A program made the translations under genes and the position numbers. A stretch of 64,000 bases of DNA from Escherichia coli O127:H6 str. E2348/69. GTDB lineage: Bacteria; Pseudomonadota; Gammaproteobacteria; Enterobacterales; Enterobacteriaceae. Below are positions 45,644 through 54,501 of the stretch, piece after piece. The stretch's first letter is position 1. Each line of letters starts with the position of its first letter. The DNA lies in assembly GCF_000026545.1 (NCBI RefSeq), contig NC_011601.1; one strand, given 5' to 3'. The notes under the pieces were generated by a model. It saw only the letters and a program-made list of their open reading frames with translations, had not been told where the DNA came from and did not search any database.

Positions 45644-46501
45644 ATGAAATACATTGGAGCGCACGTTAGTGCTGCTGGCGGTCTGGCAAATGCCGCAATT
45701 CGCGCCGCCGAAATCGACGCAACCGCGTTTGCCTTGTTCACCAAAAACCAACGTCAGTGGCGTGCCGCACCGCTCACGACGCAAACCATCGATGAATTCA
45801 AAGCCGCCTGTGAAAAATATCACTACACATCGGCGCAAATTCTTCCCCACGACAGTTATCTGATTAACCTCGGACATCCGGTTGCTGAAGCTCTGGAAAA
45901 ATCGCGCGATGCCTTTATAGATGAAATGCAGCGTTGCGAACAGCTGGGGCTTTCTTTGCTCAACTTCCACCCTGGCAGCCATCTGATGCAGATTTCAGAA
46001 GAGGATTGCCTTGCGCGTATTGCCGAATCCATCAACATTGCGCTGGATAAAACTCAAGGTGTCACCGCGGTGATTGAAAACACCGCCGGTCAGGGCAGTA
46101 ACTTAGGGTTTAAATTCGAACATCTCGCGGCGATTATCGACGGCGTGGAAGATAAATCCCGCGTCGGCGTCTGCATTGATACCTGCCATGCTTTCGCTGC
46201 CGGGTATGATTTGCGTACTCCTGCCGAATGCGAGAAAACGTTCGCTGATTTTGCCCGTATTGTAGGCTTTAAGTATCTGCGCGGGATGCACCTCAACGAT
46301 GCGAAAAGCACCTTTGGCAGCCGCGTTGACCGTCATCATAGCCTCGGCGAAGGCAATATCGGTCATGATGCGTTCCGCTGGATCATGCAAGACGACCGTT
46401 TCGACGGCATTCCGCTGATCCTTGAAACCATCAACCCGGATATCTGGGCAGAAGAGATCGCCTGGCTGAAAGCGCAACAAACTGAAAAAGCGGTGGCCTG
46501 A
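45644..46501 (+). CDS. nfo: Endonuclease IV (AP endonuclease)
   Basis: 285 aa; recognised from the AP-endonuclease family-2 sequence. Confidence 0.92.
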
Positions 46502-46504
46502 TCG

Positions 46505-47593
46505 ATGAACGACAGGGAAAAGCAGATTCTTAAAATTTTACGGCGTAACCCGCTGATTCAACAGAATGAAATCGCCGATATTCTGCAAATCAGCCGCTCA
46601 CGTGTTGCCGCTCATATTATGGATTTGATGCGCAAGGGTTTGATTAAAGGCAAAGGATATATCCTTACCGAGCAGGATTACTGTGTGGTTGTGGGTGCAA
46701 TCAATATGGATATTCGCGGAATGGCGGATATCCGTTACCCGCAAGCAGCCTCTCATCCAGGTTCTGTTCACTGTTCCGCAGGCGGCGTCGGACGTAATAT
46801 CGCGCATAACCTGGCTCTGCTTGGTCGGGATGTGCATTTAATTTCAGCTATTGGCAACGATTTTTACGGCGAGACATTACTGGAAGAAACGCGCCGCTCG
46901 GGCGTGAACGTTTCAAACTGCATTCGTCTGCATGGACACAGCACTGCAACTTATCTCGCTATCGCTAATAAGCAGGAAGAAACTATCCTGGCAATCAATG
47001 ACACACATATTCTGCAACAGCTAACGCCTCAACTGCTCAATACTTCACGGGACTTGATTCGCCATGCTGGTGTGGTGCTGGCTGATTGTAATCTCACACC
47101 TGAAGCCCTGGAGTGGGTCTTTACCATTGCTGATGAAATTCCGATGTTTGTCGATACCGTTTCCGAATTTAAAGCGAACAAAGTAAAAAACTGGTACAGC
47201 CGGATCCACACTCTGAAACCGACACAAAATGAACTGGAAATTTTGTGGGGGCAACCGATTAAAGACGACAACGATCGTATCAGAGCTGTAAATTCGCTGC
47301 ATCAACAAGGTGTTAAACGCATTTTTGTTTATCTGAAAGATGAATCTGTATTTTGCAGCGATAAGGATGGAGAACAATTTTTGCTGACCGCGCCAGCGCA
47401 TACGACAGTAGACAGTTTTGGTGCTGACGATGGTTTTATGGCGGGCCTGGTATATAGCTTTCTTGAAGGATACAGTTTCCGCGACAGCGCCCGTTTTGCG
47501 ATGGCCTGCGCGGCAATTTCACGCGCCAGCGGCAGCTTAAACAACCCTACCCTGTCTGCCGATAACGCGCTTTCATTAGTGCCAATGGTGTAA
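46505..47593 (+). CDS. yeiI: Fusion of an N-terminal winged-HTH domain to a PfkB-family carbohydrate/nucleoside kinase
   Basis: 362 aa; residues ~1-55 look like a helix-turn-helix (QNEIADILQISRSRVAAHIMDLMRKGLI); the rest contains GGVGRNIAHNLALLG and aligns with PsuK. Confidence 0.88.
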   Translation: MNDREKQILKILRRNPLIQQNEIADILQISRSRVAAHIMDLMRKGLIKGKGYILTEQDYCVVVGAINMDIRGMADIRYPQAASHPGSVHCSAGGVGRNIAHNLALLGRDVHLISAIGNDFYGETLLEETRRSGVNVSNCIRLHGHSTATYLAIANKQEETILAINDTHILQQLTPQLLNTSRDLIRHAGVVLADCNLTPEALEWVFTIADEIPMFVDTVSEFKANKVKNWYSRIHTLKPTQNELEILWGQPIKDDNDRIRAVNSLHQQGVKRIFVYLKDESVFCSDKDGEQFLLTAPAHTTVDSFGADDGFMAGLVYSFLEGYSFRDSARFAMACAAISRASGSLNNPTLSADNALSLVPMV

Positions 47594-47648
47594 CAATGTT
47601 GCCGGATTCGACGCTTGACCGCATCTTATCCGGCTCATAAATTGCGCA

Positions 47649-48899
47649 CTACGCTAAACCAATAAAGAATCCTGCAATAGTAGCACTCATCAGGTTAGAA
47701 AGTGTCGCCGCCGCCAGCGCGCGTAAACCAAGTTGGGCGATTTCCGGCGCACGGTGTGGCGCAACCGCAGAAAACGCCCCCACCACCACCCCGATAGAAC
47801 CAAAGTTAGCGAAACCGCACAACGCGAAAGAAATAATCGCCACGGTTTTAGCATCCAGAGTGCCACCCGTTTGCAGATATGGCGAGAAATTGAGATAAGC
47901 GACAAATTCATTGATCGCCAGCTTCTGCCCAATCAAACTCCCGGCAAGATTTGCATCACTCCAGTCAACCCCCATCACCCACGCCAATGGGGCCAACAGG
48001 TAACCTAAAATCGACTCCAGCGAAGCATGTTCAAAACCAAACCAGCCGCCAACACCGCCGATAATACCGTTAATCAACGCAATTATTGCAACAAATGCCA
48101 TCACCACTGTCGCCACACCTGCGGCGATTTTCAGCCCGGTCATTGCCCCTGTTGCAGCGGCTTCAATAATGCTCTTTGGCGGTGTTTCGGTGAAAGAGAG
48201 GTTATTAAAGGAAACCTGCGAAGATTCCGTAGCCGGGCTTAACAGGCGGGCAAACAAGATCCCACCGGGAATCGCCATTAACGATGCCGCCAGCAGATAT
48301 TCCACAGGCACGCCCAGTGCGGCGTAACCAATCATTGTCGAACCAGCAATCGAGGCCATACCGCTGCAAATCGCTGTAAATAATTCATTGCGATTCAGCC
48401 GATCGATAAAGGGTTTGACGATTGCCGGAATTTCGTTTTGCCCGAGGAAAATGGTAGTGACCGCGACGAATGACTCGATCTTGCTGATATTTAATGCTTT
48501 CTGGAAGATACCGCCGAGAATTCGAATTAAGATCCCCATCACACCGATGTAGTAGAGAATACTCACCAGCGCGGTGACGAAGATAATTGCCGGTAACACC
48601 CTGAAACCAAAGATAAATCCTGCGCCATCAAATAAGGTATCCATTTTCGGTCCGACCAGAGAACCGAAAATAAATGCGCTACCCGCGTCGCTGTACGCCA
48701 TCACTTTATGGACGCCAAAAGCGACTTTTTCTGCGACCCAACGCCCTGGCGGTAACCAAAGCATTATGCCGCCAATCACGACCTGTAACACTAACGCCGC
48801 GCCAACGGTACGCAGGCTGATCTTCTTTTTGTTTACTGACAGCAAAAACGCAATAGCCAGTAATACCACCATTCCCAGAACACTTCTCATGACATCCAT
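47649..48899 (-). CDS. nupX: NupC-family nucleoside permease
   Basis: 416 aa; about 88% identical by eye to the PsuT ORF at 50835-52085. Confidence 0.9.
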   Translation of the reverse strand: MDVMRSVLGMVVLLAIAFLLSVNKKKISLRTVGAALVLQVVIGGIMLWLPPGRWVAEKVAFGVHKVMAYSDAGSAFIFGSLVGPKMDTLFDGAGFIFGFRVLPAIIFVTALVSILYYIGVMGILIRILGGIFQKALNISKIESFVAVTTIFLGQNEIPAIVKPFIDRLNRNELFTAICSGMASIAGSTMIGYAALGVPVEYLLAASLMAIPGGILFARLLSPATESSQVSFNNLSFTETPPKSIIEAAATGAMTGLKIAAGVATVVMAFVAIIALINGIIGGVGGWFGFEHASLESILGYLLAPLAWVMGVDWSDANLAGSLIGQKLAINEFVAYLNFSPYLQTGGTLDAKTVAIISFALCGFANFGSIGVVVGAFSAVAPHRAPEIAQLGLRALAAATLSNLMSATIAGFFIGLA

Positions 48900-48998
48900 A
48901 GTTATTATCTCTTCATGTCATTTTGGGCGACGGCTCTCTGCCCATCATAAATAGCCGGGCCTGCATCTTGCGATACTGACCCGGCTTGTTATCAACAC

Positions 48999-49940
48999 TT
49001 AATGGGTTTTTATGTAGCCGCGTACGCACTCTTCGACTAATCCCCAGAACCAGTCGGTATCAATAGTGATGCCGACTTTGGTATTGGCGGGCTTGCCAAG
49101 AACACCCAGCTCGTCGCAGACGGTACGCCCATAGCAAGGGCCACTGTTAACGTCCACTTCGACGTACATTTCCTGGGTTTTAATGCCATCAGGGTTAATC
49201 AAATAACCGATGCAGGTGGCGTCGTGCACCGGGCCGCCAGCCAGGCCGTAGTTTTCGAACTGCGTTTTGAGAGTGAAGTTCATGATGTCGCTGAACAGCT
49301 CTCCGGCAGGGCCGCCAGCCCTTTCCATCCGAGCAATCACATCCGGGGTGCAAACGGTCTGGTTGGTAAGATCGAGGCCCATCATCACTAATGGAACGCC
49401 GGAGGTGAACACCACACGTGCGGCCTCCGGGTCAGCAAAGATGTTGAACTCAGCAGATGGGGTGAAGTTGCCAGTACCATAAGCACCGCCCATCAGAACA
49501 ATTTCACGGATTTTCGGCAGGATCGCGGGTTGCATACGCATTGCCACCGCGATGTTTGACAACGGACCAACCGGCACCAGAGTGATATCGCCATCGCTTG
49601 CCATAAGGGTATCGATGATATATTTCACCGCATGAGTGTTTTCTGCCTGGCGGGTCAGCGGCTCGAATACCGGGCCATCCAGTCCGGTTTCACCGTGAAT
49701 ATTATCGGCAACAATTTGTTGACGCATAATGGGCTGCGGCATCCCCGCATAAACCGGAACATTAATCTCCAGTTTCTGGCAAACATTCAGGCCATTAATT
49801 AATGTTTTATCGAGGGTTTGATTACCCGCTACAATGGTGATACCTAATAAATCAATCGCCGGATGTTTCGCCGCCATCATTATAGCAATAGCATCATCAT
49901 GACCCGGATCACAATCCAGAATAATTTTTCTCTTTTCCAT
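48999..49940 (-). CDS. rihB: Pyrimidine-specific ribonucleoside hydrolase (IU-NH family)
   Basis: 313 aa; N-terminal DCDPGHDD aspartate motif. Confidence 0.9.
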
Positions 49941-50108
49941 TGTTTATTTCCTCTGTTTCCAGTTGCGTTATTGTTTCTACAGCAAAGAAAATTCGATCGG
50001 GCCGATGATTGAATCTTAACAACAGCGTACGTATGCTAAATATGAGAAATCTCATAGCGGATAAACATCGTGAAAGAAATCCACAATAATGATCTTAAGC
50101 AGCAATTG

Positions 50109-50768
50109 ATGAGTGAATCTGCGTTTAAGGATTGCTTTTCAACGGATGTTTCAGCCGATACGCGGCTGTTTCATTTTTTAGCGCGTGACTACATTGTGCA
50201 GGAAGGGCAACAGCCGTCCTGGCTGTTTTACCTGACGCGAGGCCGCGCCAGGCTTTACGTCACGCTTGCTAATGGTCGCGTGTCGCTGATCGATTTCTTT
50301 GCCGCGCCCTGTTTTATTGGCGAGATTGAGTTAATCGACAAAGACCATGAACCGCGTGCAGTGCAGGCTATTGAAGAGTGTTGGTGCCTTGCGCTCCCTA
50401 TGAAGCATTACCGCCCGTTGTTATTAAACGACACGCTATTTTTACGAAAACTCTGCGTCACCTTAAGTCATAAAAATTATCGTAATATTGTTTCTTTAAC
50501 TCAGAATCAATCATTTCCGTTAGTGAATCGCCTGGCAGCTTTTATATTACTCTCGCAGGAAGGTGATCTTTATCACGAAAAGCATACGCAAGCGGCAGAG
50601 TATTTAGGCGTCTCTTATCGTCATCTTTTATATGTTCTCGCGCAATTCATTAATGACGGTTTATTAATTAAAAGCAAGAAAGGGTATCTCATTAAAAACA
50701 GAAAGCAGTTGTCAGGACTGGCGCTGGAGATGGACCCGGAGAATAAATTCTCCGGGATGATGCAGTAA
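50109..50768 (+). CDS. yeiL: CRP/FNR-family transcriptional regulator
   Basis: 219 aa from [10 protein letters not shown]; cNMP-binding-like fold followed by a C-terminal helix-turn-helix. Confidence 0.8.
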
Positions 50769-50788
50769 AAATTATTGGCAATAGTGCG

Positions 50789-50828
50789 ATTGCCGGATGC
50801 AACGCTTAATAAGGTGTACATCCGGCAA
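50789..50828. repeat. REP-like palindrome between convergent yeiL and psuT
   Basis: TTGCCGGATGCAACGCTTAATAAGGTGTACATCCGGCAA is a degenerate REP. Confidence 0.6.
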
Positions 50829-50834
50829 TGAAAC

Positions 50835-52085
50835 TCAAGCTAAACCAATAAAGAACCCGGCAATGGTCGCGCTCATCAGGTTAGAAAGTGTCGCCGCCGC
50901 CAGCGCCCGTAAACCAAGCTGGGCGATTTCCGGCGCACGTTTTGGCGAAATAGCCGAAAACGCCCCAACGACAACACCGATAGAACCAAAGTTAGCAAAA
51001 CCACACAGCGCAAAGGAGATGATCGCCACGGTTTTCACTTCCAGCGTGCCGCCCGTTTGCAGATATGGCGAAAAACTCAGGTAAGCGACAAATTCGTTAA
51101 TCGCCAGTTTCTGCCCAATCAAACTTCCGGCAAGATTTGCATCACTCCAGTCCACCCCCATAATCCATGCCAACGGGGCCAGCACATAGCCGAAAATGCT
51201 TTCCAGAGAGACATTGGCAAAACCAAACCAGCCGCCAACTCCACCAATAATGCCGTTGATCAGCGCAATGATCGCCACAAATGCCATTACCACCGTCGCC
51301 ACACCGGCGGCGATTTTCAGCCCGGTCATTGCACCGTTCGCCGCAGCTTCAATAATGCTTTTTGGCGGTGTTTCGCTAAACGACAGATTTTCAAATGTCA
51401 CCTGCGAAGGCTCGGTGGCTGGGCTAAGAATACGTGCAAACAAAATACCACCAGGGATCGCCATCAGCGATGCCGCTAACAGGTAGTCAATTGGTACGCC
51501 CATTCCGGCATAACCAATCATCATCGAACCGGCAATGGACGCCATCCCGCTACAAATTGCCGTAAATAGCTCGTTGCGATTCATGCGATCGATAAACGGT
51601 TTAACGATCGCCGGGATCTCATTTTGCCCGAGGAAAATAGTGGTAACCGCAACAAAAGATTCGATTTTGCTGATGTTGAGGGCTTTCTGAAAAATACTAC
51701 CAAGAATGCGGATTAGCAGCCCCATCACGCCAATGTAGTACAGCAGGCTGATGAGCGCGGTAACGAAAATAATCGCCGGGAGTACGCGAAAGGCGAAGAT
51801 AAAGCCCGCACCGTCAAACAGAACATCCATTTTGGGACCGACCAGCGAACCAAAAATAAAGGCACTTCCTGCGTCACTGTAGGACATCACTTTATGGACG
51901 CCTAATGCCGCCTGCTCTACTGCCCATTTTCCCGGGGGAAAATAGAGCATGATGCCACCAATGGCAATTTGCAGCAGCAGCGCAGCCCCAACCGTGCGCA
52001 AGCTGATGCTCTTTTTATTTACCGACAACACAAAGGCAATTGCCAGCAATACCACCATCCCCACAACACTTCTCATTATATCCAT
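50835..52085 (-). CDS. psuT: NupC-family pseudouridine/nucleoside transporter
   Basis: 416 aa; paralogue of nupX. Confidence 0.9.
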   Translation of the reverse strand: MDIMRSVVGMVVLLAIAFVLSVNKKSISLRTVGAALLLQIAIGGIMLYFPPGKWAVEQAALGVHKVMSYSDAGSAFIFGSLVGPKMDVLFDGAGFIFAFRVLPAIIFVTALISLLYYIGVMGLLIRILGSIFQKALNISKIESFVAVTTIFLGQNEIPAIVKPFIDRMNRNELFTAICSGMASIAGSMMIGYAGMGVPIDYLLAASLMAIPGGILFARILSPATEPSQVTFENLSFSETPPKSIIEAAANGAMTGLKIAAGVATVVMAFVAIIALINGIIGGVGGWFGFANVSLESIFGYVLAPLAWIMGVDWSDANLAGSLIGQKLAINEFVAYLSFSPYLQTGGTLEVKTVAIISFALCGFANFGSIGVVVGAFSAISPKRAPEIAQLGLRALAAATLSNLMSATIAGFFIGLA

Positions 52086-52178
52086 AATGATTTTCCCTTC
52101 ATGCCAGTAAACCCGGCGTCAGCGCCAGGTTTTGGTATGTTTGATGAGTACGGGCGACGGCTTTCTGCCCACCAGAAA

Positions 52179-53117
52179 TTAACCCACGAGACGCTGATAT
52201 TCTTTGGCAATTTCGCTCGCCAGAATGGCGTTATTAAAGACCAGTTGAATATTGGATTTCAGGCTATCACCGCCGGTTAGCTCCGCAACACGCGCCAGCA
52301 GGAACGGTGTACTCTCTTTCCCAATAACACCCTGTTCTTCGGCTTCAGCAACGGCTTGATCAATTGCTGCATTGATGGTTTCTTCTGGCATCGCAAACTG
52401 TTCCGGGATCGGGTTCGCTACCACCAGGCCGCCGTTCAAACCGGTTTGCCACTTCACTGCCATCGCGCGAGCAATTTCGCGGGCACTGTCAAGACGAATG
52501 CTGACTTCAAATGGGCTGGTTCGGCAGAAAAACGCAGGCAGCGCTTTTGTCTGATAACCAATTAACGGTACACCGAAGGTTTCTAAATATTCTGTTGTTA
52601 ATCCTAAATCGAGAATAGATTTTGCCCCCGCACAAACAACAGTGACATTGGTATTTGCCAGTTCCTGTAAATCGGCAGAAATATCGAAGGTATGTTCCGC
52701 TCCGCGATGCACACCACCAATACCTCCGGTTGCAAAAACTTTAATCCCAGCCAGTGCTGCAATAATCATGGTTGATGCAACGGTAGTCGCGCCATTTTTC
52801 CCTGCAGCAACGACAAAAGGTAAATCACGACGACTAACTTTCGTCACGTTATGTCCTTCACGGCCCAGCAATTCGATTTCTTCTTTACTTAAGCCCACTT
52901 TCATCACACCGCCAATAATGGCGATAGTGGCTGGTACTGCGCCCTGTTTACGAATTGTTTCTTCTACTTCAATTGCGGTTTGGGCATTTTGTGGGAATGG
53001 CATTCCGTGAGAAATTATGGTCGATTCCAGCGCAACAACCGGTTTTTTATTTTTTAAAGCATCCTGTACTTCAGCGGATATTTGTAATAATTCAGGGGAC
53101 AGAGTTAATTCAGACAT
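52179..53117 (-). CDS. psuG: Pseudouridine-5'-phosphate glycosidase
   Basis: 312 aa; start overlaps the psuK 3' end by 13 nt. Confidence 0.9.
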   Translation of the reverse strand: MSELTLSPELLQISAEVQDALKNKKPVVALESTIISHGMPFPQNAQTAIEVEETIRKQGAVPATIAIIGGVMKVGLSKEEIELLGREGHNVTKVSRRDLPFVVAAGKNGATTVASTMIIAALAGIKVFATGGIGGVHRGAEHTFDISADLQELANTNVTVVCAGAKSILDLGLTTEYLETFGVPLIGYQTKALPAFFCRTSPFEVSIRLDSAREIARAMAVKWQTGLNGGLVVANPIPEQFAMPEETINAAIDQAVAEAEEQGVIGKESTPFLLARVAELTGGDSLKSNIQLVFNNAILASEIAKEYQRLVG

Positions 53118-54046
53118 TCTGTGTTCTCCACTAACGATGTAACATTGGCAATTGATAATTCAGGGTTGTTGGTATATTCACAGGCAAGTGCCATTGACGA
53201 ACATCCCTGCGCAAATCGAACAGAATCGATAAACGGCATACCGTCTACCCAACAGGAGGCCAGCCCCGCCATCATGGCGTCGCCTGCCCCAGTAACATTG
53301 ATGACATTCGTTTTAATAGGGGCCGACCACCCACTTTCACCGTTGATATCACTGTAGTAAACGCCATCCCCTCCCATGCTCAGCACCAGGCGGTTCAGGC
53401 CGTGTTGATGAAACCAGGCGGCGACCTTTGCGACATCTTCACGTCCGGAAAGTGCAATTCCGCTCAACGTTTCGGCTTCAAGACGGTTAGGTTTTAACGT
53501 ATGGATTTTGCTCAGATGATCGCGGATTTTGACGCATTTCCATGCCGATACCGGATCAATAAATACAGGCGTTTCCCCGCTATTTTCCAGAACCCAGACC
53601 AGCGCCTCTTCACTAAGGTTGCAATCCGCGACAATAACCTTTGCACCGCGAATAAACTCCTGATGCTGGGCAAGAAATTCTGCAGAAATACAGTCACTAA
53701 TACTCATATCATTTATCGCGACAAGCATTTCTCCTGTATTATCGAGCAGTGATAAATAGCTGGATGTATTCTCACCCGGAACAATTAAGCATTTATCGAC
53801 ATAAACACCGGATTGATTAGTTTGCGCCAGTAATGATTGCCCATAAAAATCACCACCTACTGCACTTAAAAGCCAGGCATTTTTCCCCAGTAACGCCAGA
53901 TTATGAGCGATATTCCTTCCCACGCCACCTGGGGTAAATTTAATTTTTCCGGGATTCGAATCCGCATAATTCAATGGATGATGTGAATACCCAGCCACAT
54001 CAATATTCGCCGAGCCAATAATTACTATGTAGTCCTTTTCGCGCAT
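53105..54046 (-). CDS. psuK: Pseudouridine kinase (PfkB family)
   Basis: 313 aa from MREKDYIVIIGSANID; PfkB motif GGVGRNIAHNLALLG; the track ORF has a 38-codon in-frame upstream extension. Confidence 0.85.
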   Translation of the reverse strand: MREKDYIVIIGSANIDVAGYSHHPLNYADSNPGKIKFTPGGVGRNIAHNLALLGKNAWLLSAVGGDFYGQSLLAQTNQSGVYVDKCLIVPGENTSSYLSLLDNTGEMLVAINDMSISDCISAEFLAQHQEFIRGAKVIVADCNLSEEALVWVLENSGETPVFIDPVSAWKCVKIRDHLSKIHTLKPNRLEAETLSGIALSGREDVAKVAAWFHQHGLNRLVLSMGGDGVYYSDINGESGWSAPIKTNVINVTGAGDAMMAGLASCWVDGMPFIDSVRFAQGCSSMALACEYTNNPELSIANVTSLVENTECLN

Positions 54047-54345
54047 AGCACGCCCCCTGGCAATAAATTGCCAACGAAGAAATTGGGTAAAATAGTCATT
54101 ACAGTCAATAAGACTATTAGAGCACGTGTTCAGATTTAAACACATGTTCATAATAAGCATGTTTAACGTAATGTAAATCGATCAGAAAAAACGAAATCGG
54201 CCAGATATGAAGGCGGTCACAAAATTTGTCTATTTATGCAGCAACAAAAGAGAAAGTTGTGATGTGTAACACACAATATGGCAGGCAAGAAAAAGGGCAG
54301 AGATGTTTCTGCCCTCAGATTGTTGACAATGCGCGCTTTGTTCAT

Positions 54346-54444
54346 GCTGGATGTGGCGTAAACGCCTTATCCGACCTACAAAAGCGCAAAAATTCAATAT
54401 ATTGCAGGGTTCATGTAGGTCTGATAAGCATAGCGCATCAGGCA
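54346..54444. repeat. REP pair between psuK and fruA
   Basis: GCTGGATGTGGCGTAAACGCCTTATCCGACCTAC and GTAGGTCTGATAAGCATAGCGCATCAGGCA. Confidence 0.8.
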
Positions 54445-54501
54445 ATTTTGCGTTTGTCATCATCGGGGCAGAGATGTCTCAGCCCCGATGATGAAGAGAA
54501 A

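Follow-up and report, generated by a model that had tools for sequence, protein, structure and literature searches.

YeiI, a Winged-Helix Relative of Pseudouridine Kinase, as a Candidate Repressor of psuKGT at a Composite Nucleoside-Salvage Locus of Escherichia coli

The yeiI-psuK Locus

A cluster of nucleoside-salvage genes lies within a 64,000-nucleotide stretch of the Escherichia coli O127:H6 str. E2348/69 genome (contig NC_011601.1, matched at 100% over 9 kb; hereafter the window), and its least understood member is yeiI, whose product joins a winged helix-turn-helix (HTH) domain to a PfkB sugar-kinase fold and may act as a repressor of the neighboring psuK-psuG-psuT operon (psuKGT). In the RefSeq annotation the genes follow one another in the order nfo, a “sugar kinase” gene (yeiI), nupX, rihB, yeiL, psuT, psuG, psuK and fruA (Table 1). 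An initial annotation, made from the sequence alone, placed these genes at exactly the annotated coordinates and orientations, with yeiI on the plus strand directly after nfo and psuKGT on the minus strand. Its enzyme assignments also held: RihB scores 726 bits on the equivalog model NF007417 (cutoff 459) and carries the N-terminal DXDXXXDD motif of IU-type hydrolases as DCDPGHDD, and PsuG, the pseudouridine-phosphate glycosidase, matches the Pfam family Indigoidine_A (PF04227) at E = 5.7e-133. NupX and PsuT reach 501 and 518 bits on the CNT (NupC) model TIGR00804 (cutoff 442), YeiL fits NF007707 and PsuK fits NF007355. The two transporter genes are paralogues, each now paired with a different enzyme that cleaves glycosidic bonds. 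Both the genes and the paralogy between them are standard textbook annotation for E. coli, and the initial observation is real but already known; the evolutionary and functional interpretation attached to it, an old duplication of a transporter-kinase pair that gave rise to parallel yeiI/nupX/rihB and psuK/psuG/psuT modules, proved mostly wrong.

Table 1. Positions of genes and candidate regulatory features in the window.
Feature	Position	Strand	Description
nfo	45644..46501	+	endonuclease IV; context gene
yeiI	46505..47593	+	362 aa; winged-helix HTH_24 + PfkB; proposed pseudouridine-sensing repressor of psuKGT
yeiI/nupX intergenic region	47594..47648	none	convergent; contains a repetitive extragenic palindromic (REP)-like palindrome
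nupX	47649..48899	-	CNT-family transporter, 416 aa; gene 2 of the rihB-nupX operon; psuT paralogue
rihB	48999..49940	-	pyrimidine-specific ribonucleoside hydrolase (IU-type); NF007417, 726 bits
16-bp palindrome TATGAGAAATCTCATA	50041..50056	none	candidate regulatory site of yeiL / rihB-nupX
yeiL	50070..50768	+	CRP/FNR-family regulator, divergent from rihB; NF007707
psuT	50835..52085	-	CNT-family transporter, 416 aa; gene 3 of psuKGT
psuG	52179..53117	-	pseudouridine-5'-phosphate glycosidase; Indigoidine_A
psuK	53105..54046	-	pseudouridine kinase, 313 aa; no HTH, canonical PfkB motifs; NF007355
Box 2, palindrome GAACACGTGCTC	54120..54131	none	downstream of the predicted transcription start
Box 1, palindrome GAACATGTGTTT	54138..54149	none	abuts the -10 hexamer, overlaps the predicted start
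Predicted psuK sigma-70 promoter	54150..54177	-	TTTACA-16-TATTAT; consensus match
CRP-like site TGTGACCGCCTTCATA	54206..54221		centered at about -70 from the predicted start; inferred from consensus

The E. coli psuK-psuG-psuT genes were reportedly described as a pseudouridine catabolic operon by Preumont et al. in 2008. The psuKGT genes of the window (yeiC-yeiN-yeiM) are this operon, from which structures such as 7VKP are available (PMC9061257, PMC9247573). Likewise, RihB (YeiK) and NupX (YeiJ) of the window are the proteins known under these names and have the same substrates: RihB is a characterized uridine/cytidine hydrolase whose substrates match those of NupX, and in 2024 NupX was shown to transport uridine and cytidine, and PsuT neither (PMC11241209). 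The initial annotation considered the substrate of a YeiI/NupX/RihB set not to be established; RihB and NupX have known substrates, and only YeiI is treated as uncharacterized in the literature (PMC9061257, PMC12506659). YeiI is also missing from a 2022 list of 58 unknown E. coli transcription factors. For RihB and NupX, our sole addition is evidence that yeiL-rihB-nupX stands as a three-gene unit independent of yeiI.

Gene Partnerships Across the Enterobacterales

Gene content was compared across 14 locus types, comprising at least eight close loci from a genome scan with NupX (L002-L009) and others obtained through exact-protein look-ups. All seven genes occur together in E. coli, Citrobacter freundii (L084) and a metagenomic enterobacterium (L089). 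In eight taxa, namely three Citrobacter species, Leclercia (L004), E. albertii (L007), Klebsiella oxytoca (L092), Brenneria (L093) and Affinibrenneria (L091), yeiI lies convergent with psuT-psuG-psuK while rihB, nupX and yeiL are missing. The reverse, yeiL-rihB-nupX with neither yeiI nor psuKGT, is found in three taxa: Leclercia adecarboxylata (L082/83), Salmonella (L085/86) and Superficieibacter (L009). The module yeiI/nupX/rihB of the initial annotation is contradicted by this distribution, since yeiI stands alongside psuKGT in 11/11 yeiI-bearing locus types and is absent from the three taxa that carry yeiL-rihB-nupX alone. E. coli, Citrobacter and Klebsiella share a gap of 3 nt between the nfo stop and the yeiI start. 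This does not hold for Brenneria and Affinibrenneria, where the neighborhood is unrelated, with no nfo or fruA, yet psuK, psuG, psuT and yeiI remain together. Within E. coli, the rihB-yeiL core is present in 5380/5426 complete genomes.

Across these loci yeiI follows psuKGT and yeiL follows rihB-nupX, and therefore YeiI, NupX and RihB do not form a set. We are highly confident that the true units are yeiI with psuKGT (pseudouridine) and yeiL with rihB-nupX (uridine/cytidine), the latter being a three-gene unit inherited independently of yeiI. The unit of yeiI and psuKGT (unit B) serves pseudouridine uptake, 5'-phosphorylation and C-glycoside cleavage, and the unit of yeiL and rihB-nupX (unit A) uridine/cytidine uptake and hydrolysis; unit A is nested in unit B, filling the space from yeiI to psuT, with the two transporter paralogues, which share one orientation, as its brackets. 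The transport assays fit this split between rihB-nupX and psuKGT.

Transporter Paralogues and Recombination

NupX and PsuT are both 416 aa long and align without gaps at 370/416 identical residues (89%, E = 0). The description of the pair as nearly identical is overstated: the genes share 80% of their nucleotides and only 55% of third positions; dS is ~1.2 and thus near saturation, dN is 0.07 and dN/dS, the ratio of nonsynonymous to synonymous divergence, is ~0.06. In a context-labelled transporter tree, 300/300 bootstraps set NupX and PsuT together apart from the psu-linked transporters of Yersinia and Klebsiella sp. BIGb0407. Because the rihB-linked NupX clade branches within the psuG-linked PsuT radiation (NupX monophyly 64%), the tree suggests that nupX is a copy of psuT made within the Enterobacteriaceae.

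Divergence is unevenly spread along the two genes. In the 5' third, the proportion of synonymous differences (pS) is 0.74-0.80, as high as between genera, whereas the 3' thirds (47649-48060 versus 50835-51246) are 85% identical within the E. coli genome and 92% within that of C. freundii, as against 76-80% for orthologues between genera. This indicates gene conversion or repeated recombination between the copies, and the 89% protein identity would be held by strong purifying selection, to which conversion in the 3' third adds. Where rihB-nupX-yeiL is missing from a genome, psuT carries the nupX-type 3' flank (E. albertii compared with E. coli, C. youngae with C. freundii), and therefore the junction lies inside the transporter gene. 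Such a junction is the outcome expected of homologous recombination between direct repeats around rihB-yeiL, either as excision or as Campbell-type integration, and unit A may thus be gained or lost through homologous recombination between nupX and psuT. Homology of the two genes in flanking intergenic DNA was marginal (z ~2), consisting only of a stretch of ~20 nt near the ribosome-binding site and REP-like palindromes.

Relationship of YeiI and PsuK to HTH-Fused Kinases

YeiI and PsuK are homologous PfkB proteins, as initially annotated (41% identity over 311 aa, E = 9e-83), and share GGVGRNIAHNLALLG and DFYG. Two features had escaped that annotation, namely an N-terminal winged helix in YeiI that PsuK lacks (HTH_24, residues 1-48, E = 2.8e-11) and non-canonical phosphoryl-transfer motifs in the PfkB domain that follows it (PF00294, residues 58-348, E = 5.5e-64).

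A database search shows HTH_24-PfkB proteins of ~360 aa to be widespread in Gammaproteobacteria. In Yersinia the gene order is winged-helix kinase, psuG and CNT transporter, and in Aeromonas winged-helix kinase and psuG; on these gene orders, it is the pseudouridine kinase itself that bears the HTH outside the Enterobacteriaceae. The fused kinases of Yersinia, Serratia, Xenorhabdus, Pasteurellaceae, Aeromonas and Shewanella have the two-domain architecture of YeiI, and the YeiI HTH is 67-77% identical to those of the Yersinia, Serratia, Xenorhabdus and Pasteurellaceae proteins and 52% identical to that of Aeromonas. They differ from YeiI in retaining all canonical motifs and in being encoded by the first gene of a psu operon, whereas yeiI stands apart from it as a convergent gene and the ATP site of its product is remodelled. 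To our knowledge, none of these winged-helix-fused pseudouridine kinases has been characterized, and a literature search on them found no paper.

PsuK is 58% identical to the fused kinases and YeiI 47-51%, while the two share only ~40-41% with each other. A neighbor-joining tree of the PfkB domain (49 sequences, 310 columns, 300 bootstraps) recovers the YeiI clade as monophyletic in 98% of bootstraps and the HTH-less enterobacterial PsuK as a separate group in 99.7%; in 87%, PsuK shares a group with the fused kinases of the Yersinia type and of Pasteurellaceae from which YeiI is left out. An origin of YeiI within the Enterobacterales is likely, because its HTH is closest to those of Yersiniaceae and Morganellaceae (71-77%). 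According to the scenario that we propose, YeiI would derive from an ancestral winged-helix-fused pseudouridine kinase that persists as one gene in Yersinia, Serratia, Pasteurellaceae and Aeromonas, and this gene would now exist as two copies in Enterobacteriaceae and some Pectobacteriaceae. PsuK would have lost the HTH and kept catalysis, and YeiI would have kept the HTH and the pseudouridine pocket and lost the ATP/Mg/K site. A relic of the HTH upstream of psuK was sought by six-frame translation and by tblastn with five HTH domains, which returned only a weak linker match overlapping the PsuK N-terminus. We also considered whether an HTH-less psuK is always accompanied by yeiI, which is ruled out by Aeromonas jandaei and by a metagenome-assembled genome (MAG) of Pasteurellaceae.

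One ENA metagenome contig of 1.4 kb (P0080) joins a YeiI-type HTH (90%) to a PfkB domain that is 41% identical to YeiI and carries a canonical TGCGD. The protein could have arisen by a domain swap in nature or by chimeric assembly, and was set aside as a possible chimera.

Residue Pattern of YeiI

We compared 43 sequences of the YeiI clade with 128 canonical sequences (59 HTH-less and 69 fused), taking residue roles from the EcPUKI/EcPsuK structures (PMC9061257, PMC9247573); solved structures include none of an HTH-PfkB fusion. The ligand pocket of PUKI is kept in YeiI (Ser/Thr30, Asn143, Lys170, Asn14, Asp16): across the clade, the ribose ligands Asn14 and Asp16, the hallmark residues Ser30, Asn143 and Lys170 defined for PUKI (PMC9061257), Tyr97 and Asn112 are present in 98-100% of sequences. 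The N-terminal GG dipeptide motif reads GGVGRN in YeiI and throughout the clade, and at least 95% of the clade keeps Lys185, Glu190 and the catalytic Asp256.

The YeiI clade departs from the canonical sequences at ten columns in which the latter are at least 90% invariant; four or more of these columns lie in the phosphoryl-transfer site. In the NXXE motif, Asn187, found in 99-100% of the 128 canonical sequences, is Thr in 93% of the clade (KPTQNELE) while the Glu is kept. The anion hole, with the family motif G/A-X-G-D, reads GADD, with Gly255 replaced by Asp in 100% of the clade beside a retained catalytic Asp. Asn250 of the monovalent-cation loop has likewise become Asp in 100%, and GXXG, a small ATP-binding loop (PMC9247573), has changed from GGDG to KDES or EDES, with a clade pattern of (E/K/P)-D-(E/D)-S in which both Gly are gone. 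All four of these lost ATP-site features are at least 90% conserved in the canonical set, and the residues that replace them are themselves conserved within the YeiI clade. YeiI has the PfkB fold and the PUKI pocket, but we do not class it as a kinase because three defining catalytic motifs (NXXE, the anion hole and GXXG) are missing.

The HTH is the best-conserved part of YeiI, with 92% identity against 73% for the PfkB domain within the clade, and 73% against 47% in comparison with Yersinia. Between two E. coli alleles separated by a dS of 0.9, dN/dS is 0.10 for yeiI and 0.05 for its HTH, so that a recognizable winged helix is maintained under purifying selection. This residue pattern is not that of a kinase with a new sugar substrate, nor that of a decaying gene; it is the one expected of a ligand-sensing DNA-binding protein that no longer needs ATP.

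A Candidate Operator at the psuK Promoter

Between psuK and fruA, the intergenic DNA of E2348/69 shares only ~60% identity with that of K-12, and yet an alignment of ten Enterobacteriaceae reveals a conserved core within this region, consisting of a CRP-like site, a sigma-70 promoter and two 12-bp palindromes. The CRP-like site, TGTGA-N6-TCATA, lies near -70 with half-sites conserved in all 10, and the predicted promoter is the best match to the sigma-70 consensus in the 9.2-kb region. The two palindromes GAACAYRTGTTY come right after the -10 hexamer, 18 bp apart from start to start, and are the sole two matches in the window; no further box occurs there, for example upstream of nfo-yeiI or rihB. 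In Yersinia and in Klebsiella sp. BIGb0407 the same pair, again 18 bp apart, directly precedes the fused kinase gene, and in K. oxytoca and Brenneria it precedes psuK. Two psuKGT loci with no fused HTH and no yeiI, the Aeromonas jandaei island and the Pasteurellaceae MAG, lack the pair. Because the boxes overlap the predicted transcription start, their position would imply repression, and we infer that the winged helix common to the fused kinases and YeiI is the obvious candidate to bind them.

A 351-aa open reading frame that starts at 54160 is not the psuK coding sequence; its 38-codon extension (54047-54160) crosses both boxes as well as the predicted -10 hexamer. It is the annotated start at 54046, giving 313 aa, that agrees with the crystallized protein.

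In the mouse gut, selection favored an A-to-C change at K-12 position 2257444 in five of seven lineages (PMC9509342, Supplementary Data 7-8). We considered whether this psuK/fruA polymorphism falls on the boxes; it maps instead to the region of the predicted -35 hexamer (L090 8920-8925, equivalent to 54172-54177 of the window). With +1978 as one plausible offset to a reference whose version is unstated, the change would convert TTTACT into the consensus-like TTGACT.

YeiI as a Proposed Sensor-Repressor and Its Alternatives

Taken as a whole, two nested salvage units with YeiI as a sensor-repressor appears to us the best explanation of the locus, and a reasonably probable one. That YeiI is specifically a pseudouridine-responsive repressor of psuKGT we regard as slightly favored at most. 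The evolutionary part, in which duplication of a bifunctional winged-helix pseudouridine kinase-repressor left PsuK as a pure enzyme and YeiI as a pure sensor-repressor acting through the boxes, seems to us evenly poised. A YeiI dimer would bind the two GAACAYRTGTTY boxes across the psuK transcription start and repress psuKGT; binding of pseudouridine would bring about a Ser-mediated closure of the dimer, move the HTHs and release the DNA, and activation would be supplied by CRP. In EcPUKI, pseudouridine binding through Ser30 closes the dimer by ~14 Å (PMC9061257). By analogy, such a closure is a plausible allosteric route, with the HTHs attached at the N-terminus of that domain. The ROK repressors NagC and Mlc, paralogues of the kinases NagK and Glk, carry an HTH on a sugar-kinase fold that senses a pathway metabolite and has a degenerate ATP motif. 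They may offer the closest functional analogy for YeiI, although both the fold (ROK/ASKHA versus PfkB/ribokinase) and the HTH type are different. Loss of catalytic signatures in a PfkB protein with a transcription-related role is known from the plant pseudokinases FLN1 and FLN2, which differ from YeiI in being eukaryotic plastid proteins with no HTH and no nucleoside ligand. Compared with PsuK itself, YeiI has the same PUKI fold and hallmarks (Ser30, Asn143, Lys170), adds the N-terminal winged helix, lacks GXXG, the Asn of NXXE and the anion-hole Gly, and was never assigned to the psu operon.

Several observations weigh against this account. The catalytic Asp, Lys185 and Glu190 are kept in YeiI, so residual or altered kinase activity is possible, and what ties YeiI to DNA and to psuK expression is a comparative association with the GAACAYRTGTTY boxes only. 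The fused-kinase operon of Aeromonas veronii (HTH 52% identical) has no boxes, and Affinibrenneria has a single box, far upstream. An enterobacterial repetitive intergenic consensus (ERIC)-like repeat lies upstream of the Affinibrenneria psuK (L091 13350-13650), and its insertion may account for that lone, distant box. Since HTH-less psuKGT operons without yeiI exist, a separate regulator is not obligatory, and in E. coli yeiI appears to be co-transcribed with nfo rather than with the psu genes. Long-branch attraction could explain where the neighbor-joining tree places the long YeiI branch, support for a nupX nested inside psuT is weak (NupX monophyly 64%), and the conclusions rest on the 14 locus types, a narrower base than a genome-wide census.

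The initial annotation explained the locus by an ancient duplication of a transporter-kinase pair, giving a YeiI/NupX/RihB pathway for another modified nucleoside in parallel to PsuK/PsuG/PsuT. Both pairs are truly homologous, and the genes are neighbors in E. coli, C. freundii and L089. A joint duplication is nevertheless very improbable: yeiI tracks psuKGT and not nupX-rihB across taxa, it lies convergent to the rihB-nupX operon and outside it, placed after nfo, and NupX and RihB already have matching substrates in uridine and cytidine (PMC11241209). The protein divergence of the two pairs is moreover ~10-fold unequal (89% versus 41%), and of the two pairs that the duplication would make mutual closest homologues, the transporters roughly conform and the kinases do not, YeiI and PsuK being sisters in 0/300 bootstraps, a result that the initial annotation had itself named as refuting its model. 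One could also regard YeiI as a decaying remnant without function, its canonical catalytic motifs being lost; the dN/dS of 0.10 at a dS of 0.9, the conservation of the replaced motifs, the 92% conservation of the HTH and an open reading frame that is intact at every locus examined make this scarcely credible.

More serious, though in our judgment unlikely, is that YeiI remains active as a kinase while bearing its HTH. It might act on pseudouridine, as a second such kinase, or on a pseudouridine derivative, or use another phosphate donor, and it could be bifunctional like the fused ancestor. The retained catalytic Asp, Lys185, Glu190, GG motif and pocket hallmarks (S30/N143/K170) fit an active kinase, as do clade-specific changes of pocket-lining residues (M114 to T, M107 to T, D29 to A) that could retune specificity, and YeiI homologues are automatically annotated as pseudouridine kinase. 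Four independent ATP/Mg/K-site signatures have been replaced, however, with the replacements fixed in the clade, and we know of essentially no active PfkB kinase with Asp in place of the anion-hole Gly beside the catalytic base. Machine-learning annotators label YeiI a second pseudouridine kinase, which we regard as a mislabel, and a review of E. coli unknowns names PsuK as the enzyme responsible for this activity (PMC12506659). YeiI might instead sense or regulate something else, such as an nfo-linked stress response, with the psuK boxes bound by another transcription factor. The tight nfo-yeiI coupling in Enterobacteriaceae, with its 3-nt gap, fits such a role, and the half-sites GAACA/TGTTC loosely resemble DeoR/GlpR-type operators. 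We find this improbable, as the nfo linkage is absent in Brenneria and Affinibrenneria while linkage to psuKGT is universal among the yeiI-bearing loci examined, and the boxes occur only at psuK in the 64 kb and track the presence of the HTH.

Allelic Variation and Additional Features

Within E. coli, the alleles of E2348/69 and K-12 (L090) differ strikingly at this locus, above all over 46505-47300 and 53105-54500: yeiI is 81% identical in nucleotides (70-76% in its center; dS 0.9), psuK 81% (dS 1.4), psuG 88%, psuT 92% and the psuK-fruA spacer ~60%, as against 97-100% for nfo, fruA and fruK. Divergence increases symmetrically on both sides with distance from yeiL, then falls off sharply at the nfo and fruA ends. 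The yeiI and psuK alleles are discrete, being either at least 99% identical or undetectable. Strict co-segregation of the two was considered and rejected, as the E2348-type yeiI is found in ~2070/5426 genomes and the E2348-type psuK in ~1190/5426. In E. coli strain 81, an IS1 element is inserted within psuK (hit H18, NZ_CP088131.1 1713429-1714706).

In the spacer between rihB and yeiL, the perfect 16-bp palindrome TATGAGAAATCTCATA sits 14 bp upstream of the yeiL GTG (chance expectation 0.01) and is unchanged in seven taxa, including E. coli, C. freundii, Leclercia, Salmonella, Superficieibacter and L089. The palindrome probably serves the yeiL / rihB-nupX unit as its operator. The same spacer in Salmonella (L085 6711-6963) holds an inserted ERIC-like repeat of ~120 bp. 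Annotations of the yeiL start differ, with a GTG giving 232 aa in E2348/69 (PGAP; 50070) and a downstream ATG giving 219 aa in K-12 (L090 4856); the NCBIfam model aligns to the longer form from residue 1.

The Aeromonas jandaei island (L094 2472-10277) carries an enterobacterial-type HTH-less psuK-psuG-psuT, with a PsuK 64% identical to that of E. coli; a phage-type integrase and a WYL-domain gene lie within a few kb of it. This context suggests that the psuKGT operon is horizontally mobile.

Implications

The locus is here reread so that yeiI goes with the pseudouridine operon and not with nupX and rihB, and this provides a specific and cheaply testable function prediction for the product of a remaining E. 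coli y-gene. If the prediction is true, it would add to the explanation of the recurrent selection on the psuK promoter region in the mouse gut (PMC9509342), and a pseudouridine-responsive switch would be of use in strains engineered for pseudouridine production. YeiI and PsuK would then represent a clean case of an enzyme-regulator fusion resolved by duplication, a PfkB-fold counterpart of the split between repressors and kinases in the ROK family.

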